Below, in pieces: positions 9,709 through 55,849 of a stretch of 64,000 nt of DNA. Below the pieces are notes generated by a model that was not told the DNA's origin, did no database searches, and was given only the letters and a program-made list of their open reading frames with translations. This DNA is from Nitrospinota bacterium. Lineage in GTDB: Bacteria > UBA8248. The stretch covers positions 192,001-256,000 of the forward strand of contig JAZAHK010000003.1 of the NCBI GenBank assembly GCA_036231405.1, in the 5' to 3' direction. Position 1 is the first letter of the stretch. Each line of letters opens with the position of its first letter. The translations under genes and the position numbers were made by a program.

Positions 9709-10875
9709 TTATTTCGACATTAGCCATTCTATCCAGCTTAATGCAGGGATATCTTCGGGAATAATCAAAGAAGCAGATGTGAGAAGTCTCCCATTCATGG
9801 TGACCTTAATTTCACCAACTTTCTGCCCTTTTTTCAGTGGTGCTTTTAAAGATTTAGGGAGAATTACTTGCGTCTTAAATTCTTTTAATTTAACCCTCTT
9901 AATAACAAGAGAGATCGATTTTGAAACAATTGCTTTTATTTTATTTTTCCTGCCCCAAGAAACAGATACTGTTTCACCAACTGGTTGATGTTTAGTAAAT
10001 AAATTGTGTTTTTTGTAAACCCTAAAACCGCCAAGCAAAAGTTTCTTCGTTTCTCTATTTCTCGCCGTTTTAGTGGGACTACCTAGGACTACTGAAATTA
10101 ATCTCATTTTTCCCCTTTTGGCAGTAGCACATAAATTAAAACCAGACTTGACATAATATCCAGTTTTCAAACCGTCAAGACCTTTAAAAGTCTTCAGTAG
10201 TTTTCGATTTGTATTGTAGAGTACGAATTTCCCATCTCTAAAAGAATCAATTTGCCTTTTTGAGAAATCCAAAACTTCAGGAAATTTGACTAATTCGCGA
10301 GCTAAAATAGCTGTGTCAAAAGCCGTTGTGTAGTCCTCTTCTCTTGAAGAATCGTTAGGAGGAAGACCATGAACACTAGAGAATTTGGTATTTTGCATAC
10401 CTAACGATCTAGCGCGTTCATTCATTAATTTGACCATTTCTTTCTCATCACCAGCAATATGCTCAGCTATCGCGTAGGCGGAGTCATTAGCCGAAGCGAT
10501 AGAAACCGTTTTCACTAGTTCTCTGAGTGTAAAAATTTCTCCTTCTTTGAGATAAACCTGACTCCCACCAATCTTGCTTGCATCAAGGCTTACATGAACT
10601 TTTTCGTCAAATGAAAAAGTTCCCTTTTTTTCAGCTTCATAGACTAAAAGGAGTAACATCATTTTAACTATGGATGCAGGGATCAATTTTCTACTAGATT
10701 CATATTCCTTTAGAATTTTTCCAGTTTCTGCCTCCATTAAAACTAAAGCTTTGTATTTTAGTGGATCTTTTGTTTTATTTTTTGAAAATGAAAAATTAGT
10801 AAAAACCAAAATAGAAGAGAAGCATAGAAAAAAAATACTTATCTTTTGGAAAGAGTTTTTTTTGAAAATTTTCAA
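9709..10875 (-). CDS. dacA: D-alanyl-D-alanine carboxypeptidase (PBP5/6, peptidase S11)
   Basis: SIVK (SxxK), SAN (SxN), KTG motifs, signal peptide, PBP5 C domain. Confidence 0.9.
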   Translation of the reverse strand: MKIFKKNSFQKISIFFLCFSSILVFTNFSFSKNKTKDPLKYKALVLMEAETGKILKEYESSRKLIPASIVKMMLLLLVYEAEKKGTFSFDEKVHVSLDASKIGGSQVYLKEGEIFTLRELVKTVSIASANDSAYAIAEHIAGDEKEMVKLMNERARSLGMQNTKFSSVHGLPPNDSSREEDYTTAFDTAILARELVKFPEVLDFSKRQIDSFRDGKFVLYNTNRKLLKTFKGLDGLKTGYYVKSGFNLCATAKRGKMRLISVVLGSPTKTARNRETKKLLLGGFRVYKKHNLFTKHQPVGETVSVSWGRKNKIKAIVSKSISLVIKRVKLKEFKTQVILPKSLKAPLKKGQKVGEIKVTMNGRLLTSASLIIPEDIPALSWIEWLMSK

Positions 10876-11023: not shown

Positions 11024-11314
11024 CTATTTCTTTTTTAAAGAACCTCCATAACCTTCAGCAACTAGAGCATCTATCATTTTTTTTACATTTATTTTCTTTT
11101 CATTAAAATCGACCACGGCCTCTTTCAGCTGAAAAGATACTCTTGCCTTTTTTACTCCATCGAGTTCTTCCAGAACTCTTCGAACCGTTACTGGTCATGA
11201 AGAAGGTCAGGTCATCCCCGTAATATTTAAAATAAGTTCAGCAGCAAAAAGTGAAACACTCATAGCGAAAGTGACGAAAATAAAAGTGAGATAAAATGGA
11301 AGTTTTTTCAACAT
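11024..11314 (-). CDS. Periplasmic MerP/HMA-fold metal-binding protein with two in-frame UGA (predicted Sec36 and Sec40)
   Basis: Manual translation: MLKKLPFYLTFIFVTFAMSVSLFAAELILNITGMT-U-PSS-U-PVTVRRVLEELDGVKKARVSFQLKEAVVDFNEKKINVKKMIDALVAEGYGGSLKKK-TAG; TGA at 11207-11209 and 11195-11197 occupy the Cys sites of the HMA GMTC...C motif. Confidence 0.85.
11162..11178 (-). promoter_or_regulatory. Candidate bacterial SECIS element of the HMA selenoprotein
   Basis: GAGUUCU-GGA-AGAACUC perfect 7-bp stem; loop begins 23 nt after second UGA and 35 nt after first. Confidence 0.7.
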
Positions 11315-11376
11315 TAATTAATCAAACCTTTCAAATTAAAAATGAATAATTTTACTAAAGTTAGAAATCATTCCGA

Positions 11377-12186
11377 CTATATCAGACTTCTTAAGTAATC
11401 AATGCCAAGTTTTGCGGCTGTTTCAAAATCAGGATCCATTTTTATTTGCAAAGATAAAAAACCTTCATAATTAATTGCCTGCAGAGAACTTATTAAATCG
11501 CGCCAAGGGATGTGCCCACTGCCAGGATACTTTCTATTGCTATCAGCGATATGGAGAATTCCGAGATGATCTTTGGAATCAAAAATACTTGCAGCAAATG
11601 AAGTATCTTCCACATTCATGTGAAAAGTGTCCAGCATAATTCCAAAACCAGGACTATTAATCTCTTCAATGAATCGTATGCCGTCCTGAGTAGTAAAACC
11701 AAAATTAATACTGAACCTATGTTGAGGCTCAAATAAAACTCTAGTTCCTTTGCTGGCAGCATAATCAGATGATTCCTTAAAAGCATCATACATCCACTTT
11801 AATGATTCTTCACGTTCTTCCCCTTCGCTCAACTTCCCCCTAAAAGAGCCTACAATTACTTCTACACCATAAAAAGATGCGGCATCACAACATCCTTTTA
11901 GACGTTTCATAGCAACCTTTCGTATATTTGGGTCGGGATGACACATCCATACTTTATCTTGAAACCCAATTCCAGCAGTATGAACAGCAGACACCTCCAT
12001 CCCACGGCTTTGCACTTGCTTTTGAATTAGGTCAAAATCTAGTTCCTCTGGTTTTCTCATAGAGATTTCTATTCCATCATAACCAAGCTTTGAAAGCACA
12101 TCTAAATTTTCTTCAAAATTACCTTGTATAGCTGGAAGTAGAGGGGTATTTACATCAATAGTTGCAACCTGAAAGCTTATCTTCAT
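11377..12186 (-). CDS. Sugar phosphate isomerase/epimerase (xylose-isomerase-like TIM barrel)
   Basis: GYDGIE, FEPQHR, LDTFHMNVED, HIADSNR, PGSGH; ATG 12186 after GAGGTG preferred over 12252. Confidence 0.85.
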   Translation of the reverse strand: MKISFQVATIDVNTPLLPAIQGNFEENLDVLSKLGYDGIEISMRKPEELDFDLIQKQVQSRGMEVSAVHTAGIGFQDKVWMCHPDPNIRKVAMKRLKGCCDAASFYGVEVIVGSFRGKLSEGEEREESLKWMYDAFKESSDYAASKGTRVLFEPQHRFSINFGFTTQDGIRFIEEINSPGFGIMLDTFHMNVEDTSFAASIFDSKDHLGILHIADSNRKYPGSGHIPWRDLISSLQAINYEGFLSLQIKMDPDFETAAKLGIDYLRSLI

Positions 12187-12281
12187 ACGAACACCTCTAT
12201 AAAATAGTGAATTTCCTGCAAACCACAAATAAGATATAATTCCAACAAACATAATTAAAATATGAACTTACGAGATCGATT

Positions 12282-46709: not shown

Positions 46710-47816
46710 CTATACTCGAAATTCTTCTATCTTATTCATATCTATTGAAACCCCGAGACCCGGCGAACTTGGAACGCTGATTTCTCCATTATCAATTTCT
46801 AGAGGAAGATTGACCACATCATCAATCATTTTATATGGACCCACAGATTCAATCGCACTTAATACGGATTTGGAAGTGGAAGCAAGATGAATCTCGGCAA
46901 TAGTCTGAGGAGTAAGACCAAATCCATGACCAATCACAATCTCCAAACCTGCCCCTTCAAGCATACTGATCATTTCCCTTACTTTAAAAACTGAACCTTG
47001 CTTCATGATTTTGAGTTTAACGATATCAGCAGCTTCTCGCTTGACAACTTCAAACAAGCTACAATAGTCGGTGACACATTCATCTGCCATAATTGGAATC
47101 TCTACAGAGCGTCTAAGTTCTGCCATATCGTCTAATTTTTTTCTATCAAAAGGTTGTTCAAAAAGCCGAATATTAGCACTGGAAACTTCTTTAATAAAAT
47201 TTTGAGCATCTTGAATACTTCTATATGACTCATTAGCGTCTACTCTGATTTCAAAATCTTTGCCGCCACCTTCTCGAACAGCCAAAACCCTTTCTATATC
47301 ACTACTTACTCCTCCGTTCAGTTTTACCTTGCATGCTCTCCAACCTTTTTGTCTAAATTTTTTAGCCTCTAGAGATGCGTCTTCATTAGAAAGAACGCCA
47401 ATCCATGCATTAAAAAAAACTTTTTCAACTACAGAACCTCCCAATAACTCAGAAAGAGAAACACCTAATGATTTAGCATGTATATCTGTCAACGCAAGCG
47501 TAATAGCAGATTTACCTTCCCATAACCCATAAAGAGCAGAATCTAGATTATAAGAAATCCTTCTAAAGTTCCGTGGATCCTCCCCAATCAAGATGGGAGA
47601 TAGATTTTTTTCAACGATTTCCGCAATATCGTTTCGATTTAATTTTGTATAACCCTCAGTTGGTTCAATATCACCAATTCCATCTAAGCCATTGTCTGTC
47701 TTTACGTGTACAACCATCCCTTCTTGTATATTATGATTATGCCTTGCATTACGAAAAAAACCTTTCATCGGCATATCTATTTTGTACACATCGATAGAGG
47801 AAATTTTCATTTTCAA
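46710..47816 (-). CDS. Enolase superfamily protein (muconate cycloisomerase/dipeptide epimerase-like)
   Basis: KVK, DANE, EQP, ADE, KIMKQG, PGLGV. Confidence 0.87.
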   Translation of the reverse strand: MKMKISSIDVYKIDMPMKGFFRNARHNHNIQEGMVVHVKTDNGLDGIGDIEPTEGYTKLNRNDIAEIVEKNLSPILIGEDPRNFRRISYNLDSALYGLWEGKSAITLALTDIHAKSLGVSLSELLGGSVVEKVFFNAWIGVLSNEDASLEAKKFRQKGWRACKVKLNGGVSSDIERVLAVREGGGKDFEIRVDANESYRSIQDAQNFIKEVSSANIRLFEQPFDRKKLDDMAELRRSVEIPIMADECVTDYCSLFEVVKREAADIVKLKIMKQGSVFKVREMISMLEGAGLEIVIGHGFGLTPQTIAEIHLASTSKSVLSAIESVGPYKMIDDVVNLPLEIDNGEISVPSSPGLGVSIDMNKIEEFRV

Positions 47817-47850: not shown

Positions 47851-48816
47851 TTAAATGTTTAAAACTGATTCCCCGAATAATTCGTCTGTCTGAATTACCC
47901 TATCAGTCAAACCTTGTTCATGTGCGTACAAAGCAAGTTTTTCTAAAGTCTTATGATTTCTTTTTACTCCATACGGCCAGTAATTGTCTCCAAAAATAGA
48001 ACGTGTTTCCTCCATAAAAGCCGGTAAAAAAGGAATCATAGCAGAAAGCGCCCCTGTATCGTTCAAATTTTCTATTGTTTTTTTTCTACTCTCTTCGAGG
48101 GCGTCGTATATATTTTTCAATAACCACGGAAATTTTTCATTGAGCTGTTTTTTCAAAACAACACAATGCATTATAGGATGAATTTGAGTCTTTTTATAAT
48201 AATCTATTTCATCCTTTTTATAGTCAGGAAACAAGCGGAAAACTTTATCAGGACTCCTCAAAAATGCTTTAGGAACCTGATGTATAAGAGCAGCATCTAT
48301 TTCACCTGTTTCAAGCATATCTGACAAGTTTTTATCGACAGGTATAAAACTTATTTTACAGCCGCTTGGCATTTCTATAGGGACCCTGGGTTCTTTCGCA
48401 GCAACCCATTCTACAGTTTTAATATCCAGGTCCTACTCTTCTTTCAATATTCCTATTATCCATACAACTGCAGTCATACCCCATTCTCTAATTCCTATTT
48501 TCTTTCCGTTCAAATCAGAAGGGGCCTTGATACCTGAACTGGTATTAGCATAAACCATAGAATGTCTAAAAACACGACTGGGAAAAGCTGGAATCCCTAC
48601 GAATGGGGAGTTGCCCTTCCCAAGTAGAAATAGGTGTGCGCCCATTGACATCTCAGACAAATCAAATTCTTGGTATCTGCACATTCGATAGAAAATATCA
48701 CTAGGGGGAAATTTTAAAACTCTTAGATTCACACCTGCAGGTATCATTCCATCAGTATCTAAAAAATGTGTTCGATCATAATTTCCAAATGCTCCAGTTA
48801 ATTCCAAATCTGACAT
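47851..48816 (-). pseudogene. 4,5-dihydroxyphthalate-decarboxylase-like (PBP fold) gene interrupted by one in-frame TAG
   Basis: ORFs 48433-48816 and 47851-48372 are in one frame; TAG at 48433-48435 then DLDIKTVEWVAAKEPRVPIE joins them; YDRT, SEMS, FPSRVFRHS, PIMH, WPYG motifs. Confidence 0.75.
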
Positions 48817-49065
48817 TAAAGTAATTCCTCATTTTTAGAGAATAATTTAGTAAAAGAAGAAGATACAGATCTCTCATAAACCGAAGTGAAGAGCAAGAAA
48901 TCTTTATTTTCTAAGAACTAGATTTTAATGCTCATCACAACCAAAAAAAAAAAAAATCCAGATAGGTTTTTTAATTGAAACTGATACAATGTACAAAATT
49001 TGAATCGGAAAGAAAACTAGCCTCACTTAAAGAACTATTTTCTAAAAATATATGAATGGAAAAAG

Positions 49066-50673
49066 ATGAATAACGCAGATTTAATTGTTAAAACGTTAAA
49101 AAAAGCAGGAGTCAAATACGGATTTGGGATACCAAGCGGCAATGTTCTTCCGTTGATGGAAGCTATGAGGAAAGGTGGTATAGACTTCATCCTAACAGCA
49201 CATGAGGGTTCGGCAAGTTTTGCTGCCGACGTGATGGGTCGTCTTACTGGCAAACCTGGGTTTTGTATCTCGACTCTCGGTCCTGGGGCAACAAATCTTT
49301 CCACAGGGATAGGCAGCGCATTTCTCGATCGTTCTCCAGTTATAGGGATTACGTGTAATCTGAAAACTGATCAAATAGGACGTCGTATACAAATGTACAT
49401 AGATCATCATAAACTTTTTGAACCTATCACAAAGTCTAGTTTTGCTTTTAGAAAGAACAAAGTGGCTTCTACTCTTAAAAAGAGTATAGAGATAGTTAAA
49501 ACTGATCCTCTTGGGCCCGTACATCTAGACCTTCCAGAAGATATAGCACTCCTAAAAACAACCGAAAAAGTTCCCTTAATACCGAAAAGAACATATATGA
49601 AAAAAACTTCAAATCGATCTCTTCAAAAAGCAATCAAAATCCTAAGCGGATCTGAAAAACCGATTGCAATTCTCGGTGCCTCAACCACAAGAATGAGAAA
49701 TCCTGATCTTATTATAAAATTTTTAGAGAAATTCCAAATTCCCTTTGCTTCTACAACAATGGCCAAAGGTATAATTTCAGAGGAGCATCCTCTTTCTCTA
49801 GGATGTATAGAAAGAGGAAAAAGGCAGTTTCAAAGAGAATTTTTGAGTACTTCTGATCTAATAGTAGGATTAGGGTATGACGTCATAGAAGTAGAGTACG
49901 AAGCATGGATTAGAGACACTGCTTTACTCAACATAGACATAGAAAATGCAGATACTGATAAGTCCGTCAAAATTGTGCATGAAGTTGTTGGTGACCTTGA
50001 TTTCTCAATACAGAGCTTATCTAAACAAATAGGAAAAAAGGACGTATTTCACTGGAATAAAGATACAGTTTCCAAACATAAAGTTAATTTCCAGAAAGCT
50101 TTAAGACCAAGGACAAAAGGTTTTGCAGCACACGAAGCAATCGATATCGTCCGACATGTTTTACCAAAAGATGGAATTATCTCTTTTGATGTTGGAGCAC
50201 ATACCCACCAAATTGCAAGTCAATGGACTGCATATGAACCAAAAACTTTTTTAATTACAAATGGATGGTCTTCCATGGGGTTTGGGTTGCCTGGAGCAAT
50301 TTCTGCAAAATTAGCTTCTCCTGAACGCCCAGTTGTTGCTTTGATTGGAGATGGTTGTTTCCAAATGACATGCGGAGAACTTACTGTAGCCAAAAGATTG
50401 AACATTACTCTTCCCGTCGTTGTATTAGATGATAGTTGGCTCTCTTTGATCCAAGTAAAACAAGACAGGAGATCCTACGAGTTATATGGGACAAAACTAA
50501 ATGAAAAATCTCCGAAATCACCACCTTCTCATTACTTTGGAGTTCCTGCTTTTGGGGCAAATACTCCGGATAGCCTTGAGAAATTATTGAAAAAATCTTT
50601 TAAATTACAAGGGCCTTCAGTAATAGAAGCAAAAGTAAATCCTGAACATTATATGGAAACAGTTTTTGATTGA
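49066..50673 (+). CDS. ThDP-dependent enzyme, acetolactate-synthase-like
   Basis: HEGSA, TLGPGATN, GPVHLDLP, SSMGFGLP, GDG. Confidence 0.9.
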   Translation: MNNADLIVKTLKKAGVKYGFGIPSGNVLPLMEAMRKGGIDFILTAHEGSASFAADVMGRLTGKPGFCISTLGPGATNLSTGIGSAFLDRSPVIGITCNLKTDQIGRRIQMYIDHHKLFEPITKSSFAFRKNKVASTLKKSIEIVKTDPLGPVHLDLPEDIALLKTTEKVPLIPKRTYMKKTSNRSLQKAIKILSGSEKPIAILGASTTRMRNPDLIIKFLEKFQIPFASTTMAKGIISEEHPLSLGCIERGKRQFQREFLSTSDLIVGLGYDVIEVEYEAWIRDTALLNIDIENADTDKSVKIVHEVVGDLDFSIQSLSKQIGKKDVFHWNKDTVSKHKVNFQKALRPRTKGFAAHEAIDIVRHVLPKDGIISFDVGAHTHQIASQWTAYEPKTFLITNGWSSMGFGLPGAISAKLASPERPVVALIGDGCFQMTCGELTVAKRLNITLPVVVLDDSWLSLIQVKQDRRSYELYGTKLNEKSPKSPPSHYFGVPAFGANTPDSLEKLLKKSFKLQGPSVIEAKVNPEHYMETVFD

Positions 50674-55752: not shown

Positions 55753-55849
55753 GGGAGCACATCGGTGCTGGTGTGCCGCCTGGACTTCAAATCCAGTGGA
55801 CGGGTCTAAACAATTCGTCGGTGGGTTCGACTCCCACGTGCTTCCGCCA
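55753..55849 (+). tRNA. selC: tRNA-Sec(TCA)
   Basis: 97 nt; 8-bp acceptor GGGAGCAC/GTGCTTCC, 6-bp D stem with TGGT loop, CTGGA-CT-TCA-AA-TCCAG, long variable arm, 5-bp T stem, G discriminator plus CCA. Confidence 0.95.

Follow-up and report, generated by a model that had tools for sequence, protein, structure and literature searches.

The window, i.e. the whole stretch of 64,000 nucleotides that was analysed, carries on its minus strand (11314..11024) a gene of 96 codons followed by a TAG stop (11024-11026), provided that TGA is read as selenocysteine (Sec, U). The gene was assigned on the basis of its translation, of a Pfam HMA domain match, and of orthologs that contain both in-frame TGAs. 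It is flanked by two genes on the same strand, both recognised by their domain matches: dacA (Peptidase_S11/PBP5; 9709-10875, minus strand), and a gene for an AP_endonuc_2 xylose-isomerase-like TIM-barrel protein (11377-12252, minus strand). A sigma-54 gene lies upstream of the locus in divergent orientation. The preliminary description of this DNA had proposed a clean hidden frame between dacA and an "epimerase", which was confirmed, the "epimerase" being the TIM-barrel gene. The order TIM-barrel gene, HMA gene, dacA is kept in all three same-genus relatives, in which dacA is 77–78% and the TIM-barrel gene 83–86% identical to the genes of the window, values similar to that of the HMA gene itself. 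A Shine-Dalgarno-like GAAAGG (11327..11332, minus strand) is located 12 nt 5' of the ATG, in a block conserved across the four same-genus genomes. A scan for promoters and terminators gave a single promoter-like site on the plus strand, fewer than in shuffled sequences, and no terminators.

With TGA translated as U, the protein reads MLKK...SLFAAE LILNITGMT-U-PSS-U-PVTVRRVLEELDGVKKARVSF...AEGYGGSLKKK. The only in-frame stops are two TGAs (codons 36 and 40), as was checked against the plus-strand text, and the protein contains no Cys residue, in agreement with the earlier observation that UGA occupies both Cys positions of the domain and that Cys occurs nowhere else. Residues 1-24 (11243..11314, minus strand) form a putative signal peptide, as had also been noticed beforehand; judged from sequence and alignment, it starts with a basic MLKK followed by a hydrophobic core. 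Alignment with the A-H-A/AE site of the ortholog in genome G006 suggests that cleavage may occur after ..SLFA.

Conservation and proposed decoding of the two UGA codons

The two codons, UGA-1 (codon 36; 11207..11209, minus strand) and UGA-2 (codon 40; 11195..11197, minus strand), are proposed to encode Sec at the first and the second metal-binding position, respectively. Each of them is found in 12/12 aligned sequences, so that both Sec columns are invariant. In a six-frame search, each of the three remaining genomes of the same genus was found to have this gene, again with both TGAs (76–82% identity), and remoter two-TGA forms appeared in other genera, families and classes. When 51 genomes of the phylum were searched with the family profile, 14 contained two-TGA genes, at 15 places in total, with scores of 85–133 bits versus at most 64 for ordinary HMA domains of the Cys type. 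In the largest genus of the phylum, the same profile detected a two-TGA gene in none of 23 genomes. Chance can be rejected as the origin of this pattern, since the positions of the two TGAs coincide with the Cys columns of the HMA domain and both codons are kept in every relative examined. Two weaker matches with two TGAs were also seen with the family profile in a further genome (G007).

Comparison of the four same-genus genes in all six pairs (Nei-Gojobori method) gave dN/dS values of 0.07–0.16 for the whole gene and 0.06–0.17 for codons 41-95, with dS between 0.37 and 0.83. The low values downstream of the UGAs indicate that this region is translated and constrained; purifying selection 3' of the UGAs, which the preliminary description had suggested looking for, is thus present. 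The possibility of TGY at these codons had been raised as well, and the assembled contigs of four public runs, which come from four studies and one of which may be the source sample, span both sites with TGA and with no differing letter. These are DNA data; a search for RNA runs that contain the stretch found none. In a public protein collection, a word-based search retrieved eight close relatives, in all of which the two sites were wrongly called, either as W or as W plus C. One of them, a metagenome protein that is 91% identical (P0007), combines W at the first of these sites with Cys at the other. The expectation that standard gene callers would miss this gene was largely correct, as it is either missed or misread, and public protein entries have W at both sites.

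The source genome assembly comprises 2.09 Mb with 36.8% GC, and is 91.9% complete. Within it, TGA terminates 208 of 1040 long ORFs, and reading TGA as sense raises the total cover by long ORFs from 1.40 Mb to no more than 1.54 Mb. Elsewhere in this genome TGA thus works as an ordinary stop, and the W residues in public protein entries are therefore artefacts of gene calling with code 4. The genes selA (568.6 bits) and selB (391.8 bits) both scored above their cut-offs and are adjacent on contig 6. The selD gene (334.7 bits) has one in-frame TGA, and since this falls in GG-U-GSK, SelD is itself a selenoprotein. The gene for the tRNA(Sec), selC, lies within the window on the plus strand (55753..55849) with the anticodon TCA, as detected by ARAGORN and by Rfam RF01852 (75 bits). 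Both its presence in the window, as first reported, and that of selA, selB and selD in the genome, for which a check had been proposed, were thereby established. The UGAs on Cys columns, the presence of selA, selB, selC and selD, and the purifying selection 3' of the UGAs all point in the same direction: the HMA gene is real, and it almost certainly encodes a double selenoprotein.

The spread of this loop was followed with the motif G-M-x-TGH-P-x-x-TGH-P-x6-L-x2-L-x-G-V, in which TGH stands for TGA, TGC or TGT, so that TGG cannot match. There were 22 matches in a set with one genome for each of 185,579 species and 48 in a metagenome collection, and all 70 translate as HMA domains. The first ligand codon was TGA in 70/70; the second was TGA in 60 and a Cys codon (TGY) in the remaining 10. 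Position 1 is thus never Cys within this x3 motif, i.e. with three residues between the ligands, and no Cys/Cys or Cys/Sec form occurred among the 70 matches. The presence of Cys at position 2 argues for Sec rather than Trp at these sites. A search for Cys/Cys, Sec/Cys and Sec/Sec orthologs had been suggested; the last two kinds were found and Cys/Cys was not among the 70, where other Cys/Cys forms with x3 spacing could escape detection because the motif demands a proline after each ligand. Going by record titles, the 22 genome matches comprise 9 Planctomycetota, 8 Nitrospinota/Nitrospinaceae, one each of Methylomirabilis, Rokuibacteriota and Elusimicrobia, and 2 that are unclassified. Three of the 22 have exactly the sequence of a same-genus ortholog, which puts the organism of the window among marine Nitrospinaceae. 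The U-P-x-x-U-P variant is widespread and uncurated, and has Sec at the first ligand in every match found. Including forms with Cys at the second position, U-P-x-x-[U/C]-P loops occur in at least four phyla and in three architectures: as a free, presumably exported domain, fused to MerT, or joined to a domain with weak similarity to DsbD_N.

The family profile was also run against 1.84 billion representatives, and the best 150 matches were dominated by multi-HMA proteins, ranked by summed scores. Among these 150, 38 contained 108 HMA sites of the Cys type C-x3-C (GMMCQKNCG type). The view that x3 spacing goes only with selenium was therefore given up; the unusual U-x3-U spacing noted in the preliminary description is real, but three-residue spacing is not unique to selenium. 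As far as these searches reach, the form with a proline after each ligand is. None of the best 150 matches had the form [C/W/X]-P-x-x-[C/W/X]-P, in a ranking by which single-domain Cys/Cys proteins are not resolvable.

A SECIS-like hairpin 3' of the UGAs had been proposed. RNAalifold, applied to 16 sequences from genes of the Nitrospinota/Methylomirabilota/Elusimicrobia type, predicted two conserved hairpins. The first, H1 (11182..11197, minus strand), starts 9 nt past UGA-1 and includes UGA-2 in its stem. In the window it is weak, with only four pairs (GACC/GGUU) and a 6-nt loop, and two of these four pairs are the sole broken cells of their column. One extra H1 pair varies among GU, UG, CG and GC across the 16 sequences. 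The second hairpin, H2 (GAGUUCU-GGA-AGAACUC; 11162..11178, minus strand), was supported by RNAalifold and pair counts. It starts 16 nt past UGA-2, and its loop lies 23 nt past UGA-2 and 35 nt past UGA-1. The first base of the H2 loop is G in 16/16 sequences despite being the wobble base of a Leu codon. Three H2 pairs change together from C-G to U-A in the AT-rich genus, which amounts to about one evolutionary event (own genus versus the rest). Over 11 specified pairs, 98.3% of the cells are paired, versus 31–64% when the partners are slid by 1–3 columns, and RNAalifold arrived at both helices independently of this specification.

In E. coli fdhF, the spacing between the UGA and its SECIS is about 11 nt, and bSECISearch reportedly accepts 16–37 nt from the UGA to the loop. 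The H2 loop is within this range for both UGAs, and H1 has the classical spacing relative to UGA-1. A 5-bp hairpin with a GGA loop like that of H2 also occurs in the selD gene of this genome, 12 nt past the UGA. In planctomycete genes the hairpins are different. When the window was compared with Rfam at the gathering cut-offs, only tRNAs were reported and nothing matched at the HMA gene. H2 is likely to be the SelB-binding SECIS, a prediction made from the pairing pattern and the loop.

Domain, predicted fold and metal context

When U was replaced by C, the protein matched Pfam HMA (PF00403) over residues 29-89 with an E value of 7.7e-10 and 39.4 bits, compared with a gathering threshold of 24.8; the HMMER comparison with this family that had been suggested earlier thus gave a clear assignment. 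The canonical metal-binding loop of HMA domains is GMxCxxC. The loop found here, GMT-U-PSS-U-P, is a variant of this motif and not the motif itself, as both ligands are encoded by UGA and are spaced by three residues. An AF2 model was built on the 12-sequence alignment and had a mean pLDDT of 81.9, with values of at least 90 across the domain. The predicted elements follow the order E-H-E-E-H-E (E25-32, H40-49, E54-60, E65-70, H77-86, E90-93), which in the model corresponds to the ferredoxin-like beta-alpha-beta-beta-alpha-beta order. Among solved structures, the top Foldseek match of the model was oxidised MerP from Ralstonia metallidurans (1osd; TM 0.94 on the target, rmsd 0.9, 38% identity), and the matches next in rank to the predicted structure were ZiaA, CopZ, ATP7B domains and reduced MerP (1afi, 39% identity).

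The genes around relatives of this protein were inspected at 24 loci. Eight of these contain genes of Mer-named Pfam families (MerR, MerF, MerE, MerC or MerB), and three more contain a MerA-like pyridine-nucleotide disulfide reductase, one of them with its own HMA head, giving a total of 11/24. The genes at other loci included zf_CopZ, CusB/AcrB, OEP, AhpC/Redoxin, DsbH and ECF sigma factors. MerR-family regulators as such are not mercury-specific. A MerT-like membrane domain is fused to many of the Nitrospinota forms and to one planctomycete form. In two planctomycete forms, the C-terminal part shows weak similarity to DsbD_N (E values of 4e-4 and 7.7e-4, below the cut-off). The mer-type neighbours and the MerT fusions suggest that this family is mostly a seleno-analogue of MerP.

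The genome that carries the window gene presents a different picture. No MerT, no other HMA domain and no P-type ATPase were found in the 91.9%-complete assembly, and no MerA scored above the cut-off, the best match being an Lpd-like enzyme that lacks the C-terminal Cys pair. Searches of the assembly by tblastn with the MerF, MerE, MerC, MerB, MerR and zf_CopZ genes of the relatives gave no match, and HgcA, multicopper oxidase, NirK-type domains and PCuAC were likewise not found in it. There is one gene for SCO1/SenC. As a candidate reductant partner of DsbD type, the assembly has only a DsbD_TM match of 23.3 bits, which is below the cut-off. The statement that no mer or cop genes lie nearby therefore holds for the neighbourhood and also for the assembly as a whole. 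Since metal partner genes were not found there, the protein is best read as a free periplasmic soft-metal sink or buffer.

Proposed role and alternatives

These results are taken to mean that the gene encodes a genuine exported HMA protein of the MerP/CopZ fold in which Sec replaces both ligand Cys residues, and which would act as a lone periplasmic sink or buffer for soft metals rather than as the first step of a MerT/MerA pathway; a probability of about 70% is assigned to this reading. In the proposed mechanism, SelB and the Sec-tRNA(Sec) made from selC would decode both UGAs, presumably guided by the downstream hairpins, and H1 may serve UGA-1. The signal peptide would direct the product to the periplasm, leaving a mature domain of about 72 residues. 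This domain is predicted to adopt the beta-alpha-beta-beta-alpha-beta fold, with the GMT-U-P-S-S-U-P loop opening helix 1. Selenols have a low pKa, bind Hg strongly through Hg-Se bonds, and form diselenides that are easily exchanged. The two selenolates could accordingly clamp a soft metal ion, in the first place Hg(II) and alternatively Cu(I) or Cd(II), as this chemistry and the mer genes of the relatives would suggest, and in the metal-free state they may close into a diselenide. Several points count against this reading: a Sec pair in the oxidising periplasm would tend toward the diselenide, no partner genes were found in the assembly, the protein scores below the curated cut-offs, H1 is weak in the window, and the paired changes in H2 amount to about one event. 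The role considered most likely is nevertheless to trap or chaperone soft metals in the periplasm by means of the two selenolates. In a streamlined marine genome of the Nitrospinaceae type, such a protein would act on its own as a periplasmic sink or buffer.

Copper offers another reading of the same domain. The protein could be a periplasmic chaperone or buffer for Cu(I) and not a binder of Hg, passing scarce Cu(I) from seawater to a copper-requiring respiratory enzyme, for example via SCO1. In line with this, two CopZ models score near the MerP model (NF033795, 49.3 bits; NF033794, 43.2 bits), the predicted structure has CopZ and ATP7B domains among its best matches, and one relative (L059) lies beside efflux genes of the CusB/AcrB type. 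The assembly contains the SCO1/SenC gene, and no P-type copper ATPase was found in it, which would place copper handling on the periplasmic side. Against copper, no multicopper oxidase, NirK-type domain or PCuAC was found in the assembly, the neighbours in relatives are mainly of mer type, and the highest identities to solved structures are those to MerP (38–39%), so that a Cu(I)-specific role is regarded as unlikely. A still less probable view is that the HMA scaffold carries a redox-active diselenide or transports selenium, with U-x3-U cycling between diselenide and selenolates and no metal being held. The relatives L052, L057, L058 and L061 do lie beside AhpC/TSA-Redoxin, Thioredox_DsbH or CMD genes, two planctomycete forms carry the DsbD_N-like domain, and no metal-handling partner gene was found in this genome. 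Both the fold and the loop, GM-x-[U]-...-[U], nevertheless belong to the metal-binding HMA type, mer-type neighbours and MerT fusions prevail among the relatives, and the DsbD_N matches are below the Pfam threshold.

That the gene does not encode a selenoprotein at all, the UGAs being decoded as Trp or Cys with the help of a near-cognate tRNA, or under another genetic code, or reflecting a dead gene or an assembly error, is hardly credible. The W at both sites in public protein predictions would fit a Trp reading, but it is explained by gene calling with code 4 in a genome in which TGA ends 208 of 1040 long ORFs, and Cys at position 2 in relatives points to Sec. The full Sec machinery of the genome and the purifying selection 3' of the TGAs also stand against this explanation, as does the identical sequence in four assemblies.

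If the soft-metal sink proposed above is correct, it would add to the few selenoproteins in which Sec binds a metal instead of catalysing redox reactions. The U/U and U/C forms with x2 and x3 spacing constitute a natural series from which it might be learned what selenium buys a metal site. The two UGAs, 12 nt apart and followed by two conserved hairpins, provide a compact case for the study of SelB at closely spaced Sec codons. There is also a gap in annotation, as the x3 forms fall outside every curated model and public sets hold Trp-containing miscalls. A real, if modest, ecological point is that strong constraint maintains the gene in each of the four genomes of a marine Nitrospinaceae genus that has small genomes and almost no other metal-homeostasis genes. 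A bolder and rather doubtful extension is that the U-P-x-x-[U/C]-P loop defines a distinct class of selenium-dependent HMA sites, the orphan form being the only dedicated soft-metal protein of its host, where its two selenolates would serve as a periplasmic sink and immobilise Hg(II), methylmercury or Cu(I) with no transporter or reductase involved. Were such a class of Sec-dependent sinks to exist, marine selenium use would be linked to mercury speciation in the dark ocean, where the hosts are abundant oceanic nitrite oxidisers with small genomes.

Comparison with known families and earlier reports

The preliminary description knew of no characterised double-Sec HMA protein. The full-text literature search likewise found no bench work on any double-Sec HMA protein and no description of the x3 form, but the kind as such is catalogued, both in the curated model NF041115 and in two reviews, so that the novelty claimed at that stage was too high. 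These reviews (PMC13188914 and PMC9312934) list, in the parts that were available, a putative mercuric reductase or metal-binding protein with UxxU and two Sec, which the second names "Putative mercuric reductase, PRK13748, UxxU", and both, the first as its reference 60, credit the UxxU family to Zhang and Gladyshev 2007 (PMC1976440). In a term search, "mercuric reductase" was absent from the main text of PMC1976440. The Haft preprint, in the portion available, mentions MerT-family selenoproteins and no HMA form. The "MerP" selenoprotein of the GOS paper was considered as a precedent and rejected, because the two reads in its supplement have a single U and show no resemblance.

The best-scoring curated model was NF041115 (UxxU_metal_bind), with 66.8 bits and an E value of 1.4e-18, which does not reach the cut-off of 95. 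When the window protein and six other x3 forms were scanned with this model, all fell below 95 (58.7–69.7 bits), compared with 98.1 and 99.3 bits for two U-x2-U forms of the phylum (L019 and L020) and 94.6 for another. Members of NF041115, which occur in the same phylum (L019, L020), resemble the window protein in being small, in having the HMA fold, and in having Sec at both ligand positions. They differ in their U-x2-U spacing, whereas the window protein has U-P-S-S-U (x3) with a proline after each Sec. The x2 forms of the phylum also have leaders of the lipoprotein type and lie beside MerF-type genes, unlike the window gene, which is an orphan. A tree of the domains did not separate x2 and x3 forms and had an unresolved backbone.

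MerP (TIGR02052) gave 64.1 bits, below its cut-off of 92.55. Its signal peptide has a putative counterpart in the window protein, and the two proteins have in common that they contain one HMA domain and a loop of the type GMT-x-...-x-P-[IV]-TV. The window protein is distinguished from MerP by having Sec instead of Cys as both ligands, by one extra residue in the loop, and by an assembly in which no merT, merA or merR was found.

The model for the selenoprotein resembling a MerT/CopZ fusion (NF045683) matched with only its HMA part (44.6 versus 375 bits), and there is no MerT domain in the 96 residues. MerT-HMA fusions from Nitrospinota and other MAGs resemble the window protein in having an x3 loop (U-P-F-[ST]-U-P), two Sec and the same two hairpins, but they are located in the membrane, start with a MerT-like domain and have neighbours of mer type, whereas the window protein is a free, presumably exported domain. 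These fusions are themselves uncurated; the MerT-fused x3 forms reached 38–42 of the 375 bits required by NF045683 and about 70 of the 180 required by the MerTP model NF033556. Domains of the Cys type C-x3-C (GMMCQKNCG or GMSCAKNCA) share the HMA fold and the three-residue ligand spacing with the window protein, but have Cys at both ligands and no following proline, and are arranged in tandem in long multi-HMA proteins. Compared with the catalogued proteins of this kind, the window gene differs in its loop spacing, U-P-x-x-U-P; it is unannotated, and it is an orphan in the genome of a marine nitrite oxidiser.

Selenocysteine and metal homeostasis genes of G000

In G000, the assembly that contains the window, the selD gene lies outside the window on contig C3 (154791-155753, locus L009) and carries an in-frame UGA in the motif GG-U-GSK (U, selenocysteine or Sec), which makes SelD itself a predicted selenoprotein. 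A hairpin of 5 bp with a GGA loop is located 12 nt 3' of this UGA. The selA-selB region was found on contig C6 (38582-49554; loci L001, L002, L010 and L118), where selB adjoins selA. A few kb downstream of selA/selB lie a SCO1/SenC gene (46795-47100) and a second, weaker SelD/PurM-like match (48793-49554).

A search of the G000 assembly, which is 91.9% complete, recovered no P-type ATPase (PF00122), a family present in all control genomes. The metal homeostasis of G000 looks extremely reduced.

Public predictions and Cys-type domains

All public protein predictions of the double-Sec HMA gene family (P0002-P0009) have Trp at the TGA sites, and in P0007 the second site is Cys. Judging by these Trp residues, gene callers had evidently switched to code 4, which reads TGA as Trp, on short marine contigs.

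The C-x3-C loop of Cys type (GMMCQKNCG) is frequent in long proteins that carry 3-9 HMA domains in tandem (profile hits P0011-P0159). To our knowledge, this spacing is seldom mentioned for HMA domains.

Related loci

In two Planctomycetaceae MAG contigs (L049 and L056), U-x3-U HMA domains of lipoprotein type each carry a further, fused domain of about 200 residues at the C-terminus. The DsbD_N match of this added domain is weak (19.9 and 20.8 bits, below the cut-off) and hints at a redox partner that would be built in. In L042, a Planctomycetia MAG contig encoding a form with Sec at the first ligand and Cys at the second, a stop occurs about 40 residues past the loop, much earlier than in the paralog L062 on a different contig of the same MAG, and the L042 copy is possibly truncated or in decay.

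In L019 (genome G042) and L020 (G041), the U-x2-U lipoprotein forms (members of NCBIfam NF041115) are preceded by a glutaredoxin-like frame with an in-frame TGA (SST-U-APC), probably a Sec-glutaredoxin sharing the locus with the U-x2-U form. In L019, MerF follows.

Locus L025 (genome G011, contig C16) contains two tandem genes for MerT-HMA proteins, in which an N-terminal MerT-like membrane domain is fused to the Sec-containing HMA domain, each with a U-P-F-T-U-P loop, followed by a pyridine-nucleotide disulfide reductase of 448 residues. Together these genes make up a compact, mer-like unit that carries four predicted Sec codons.
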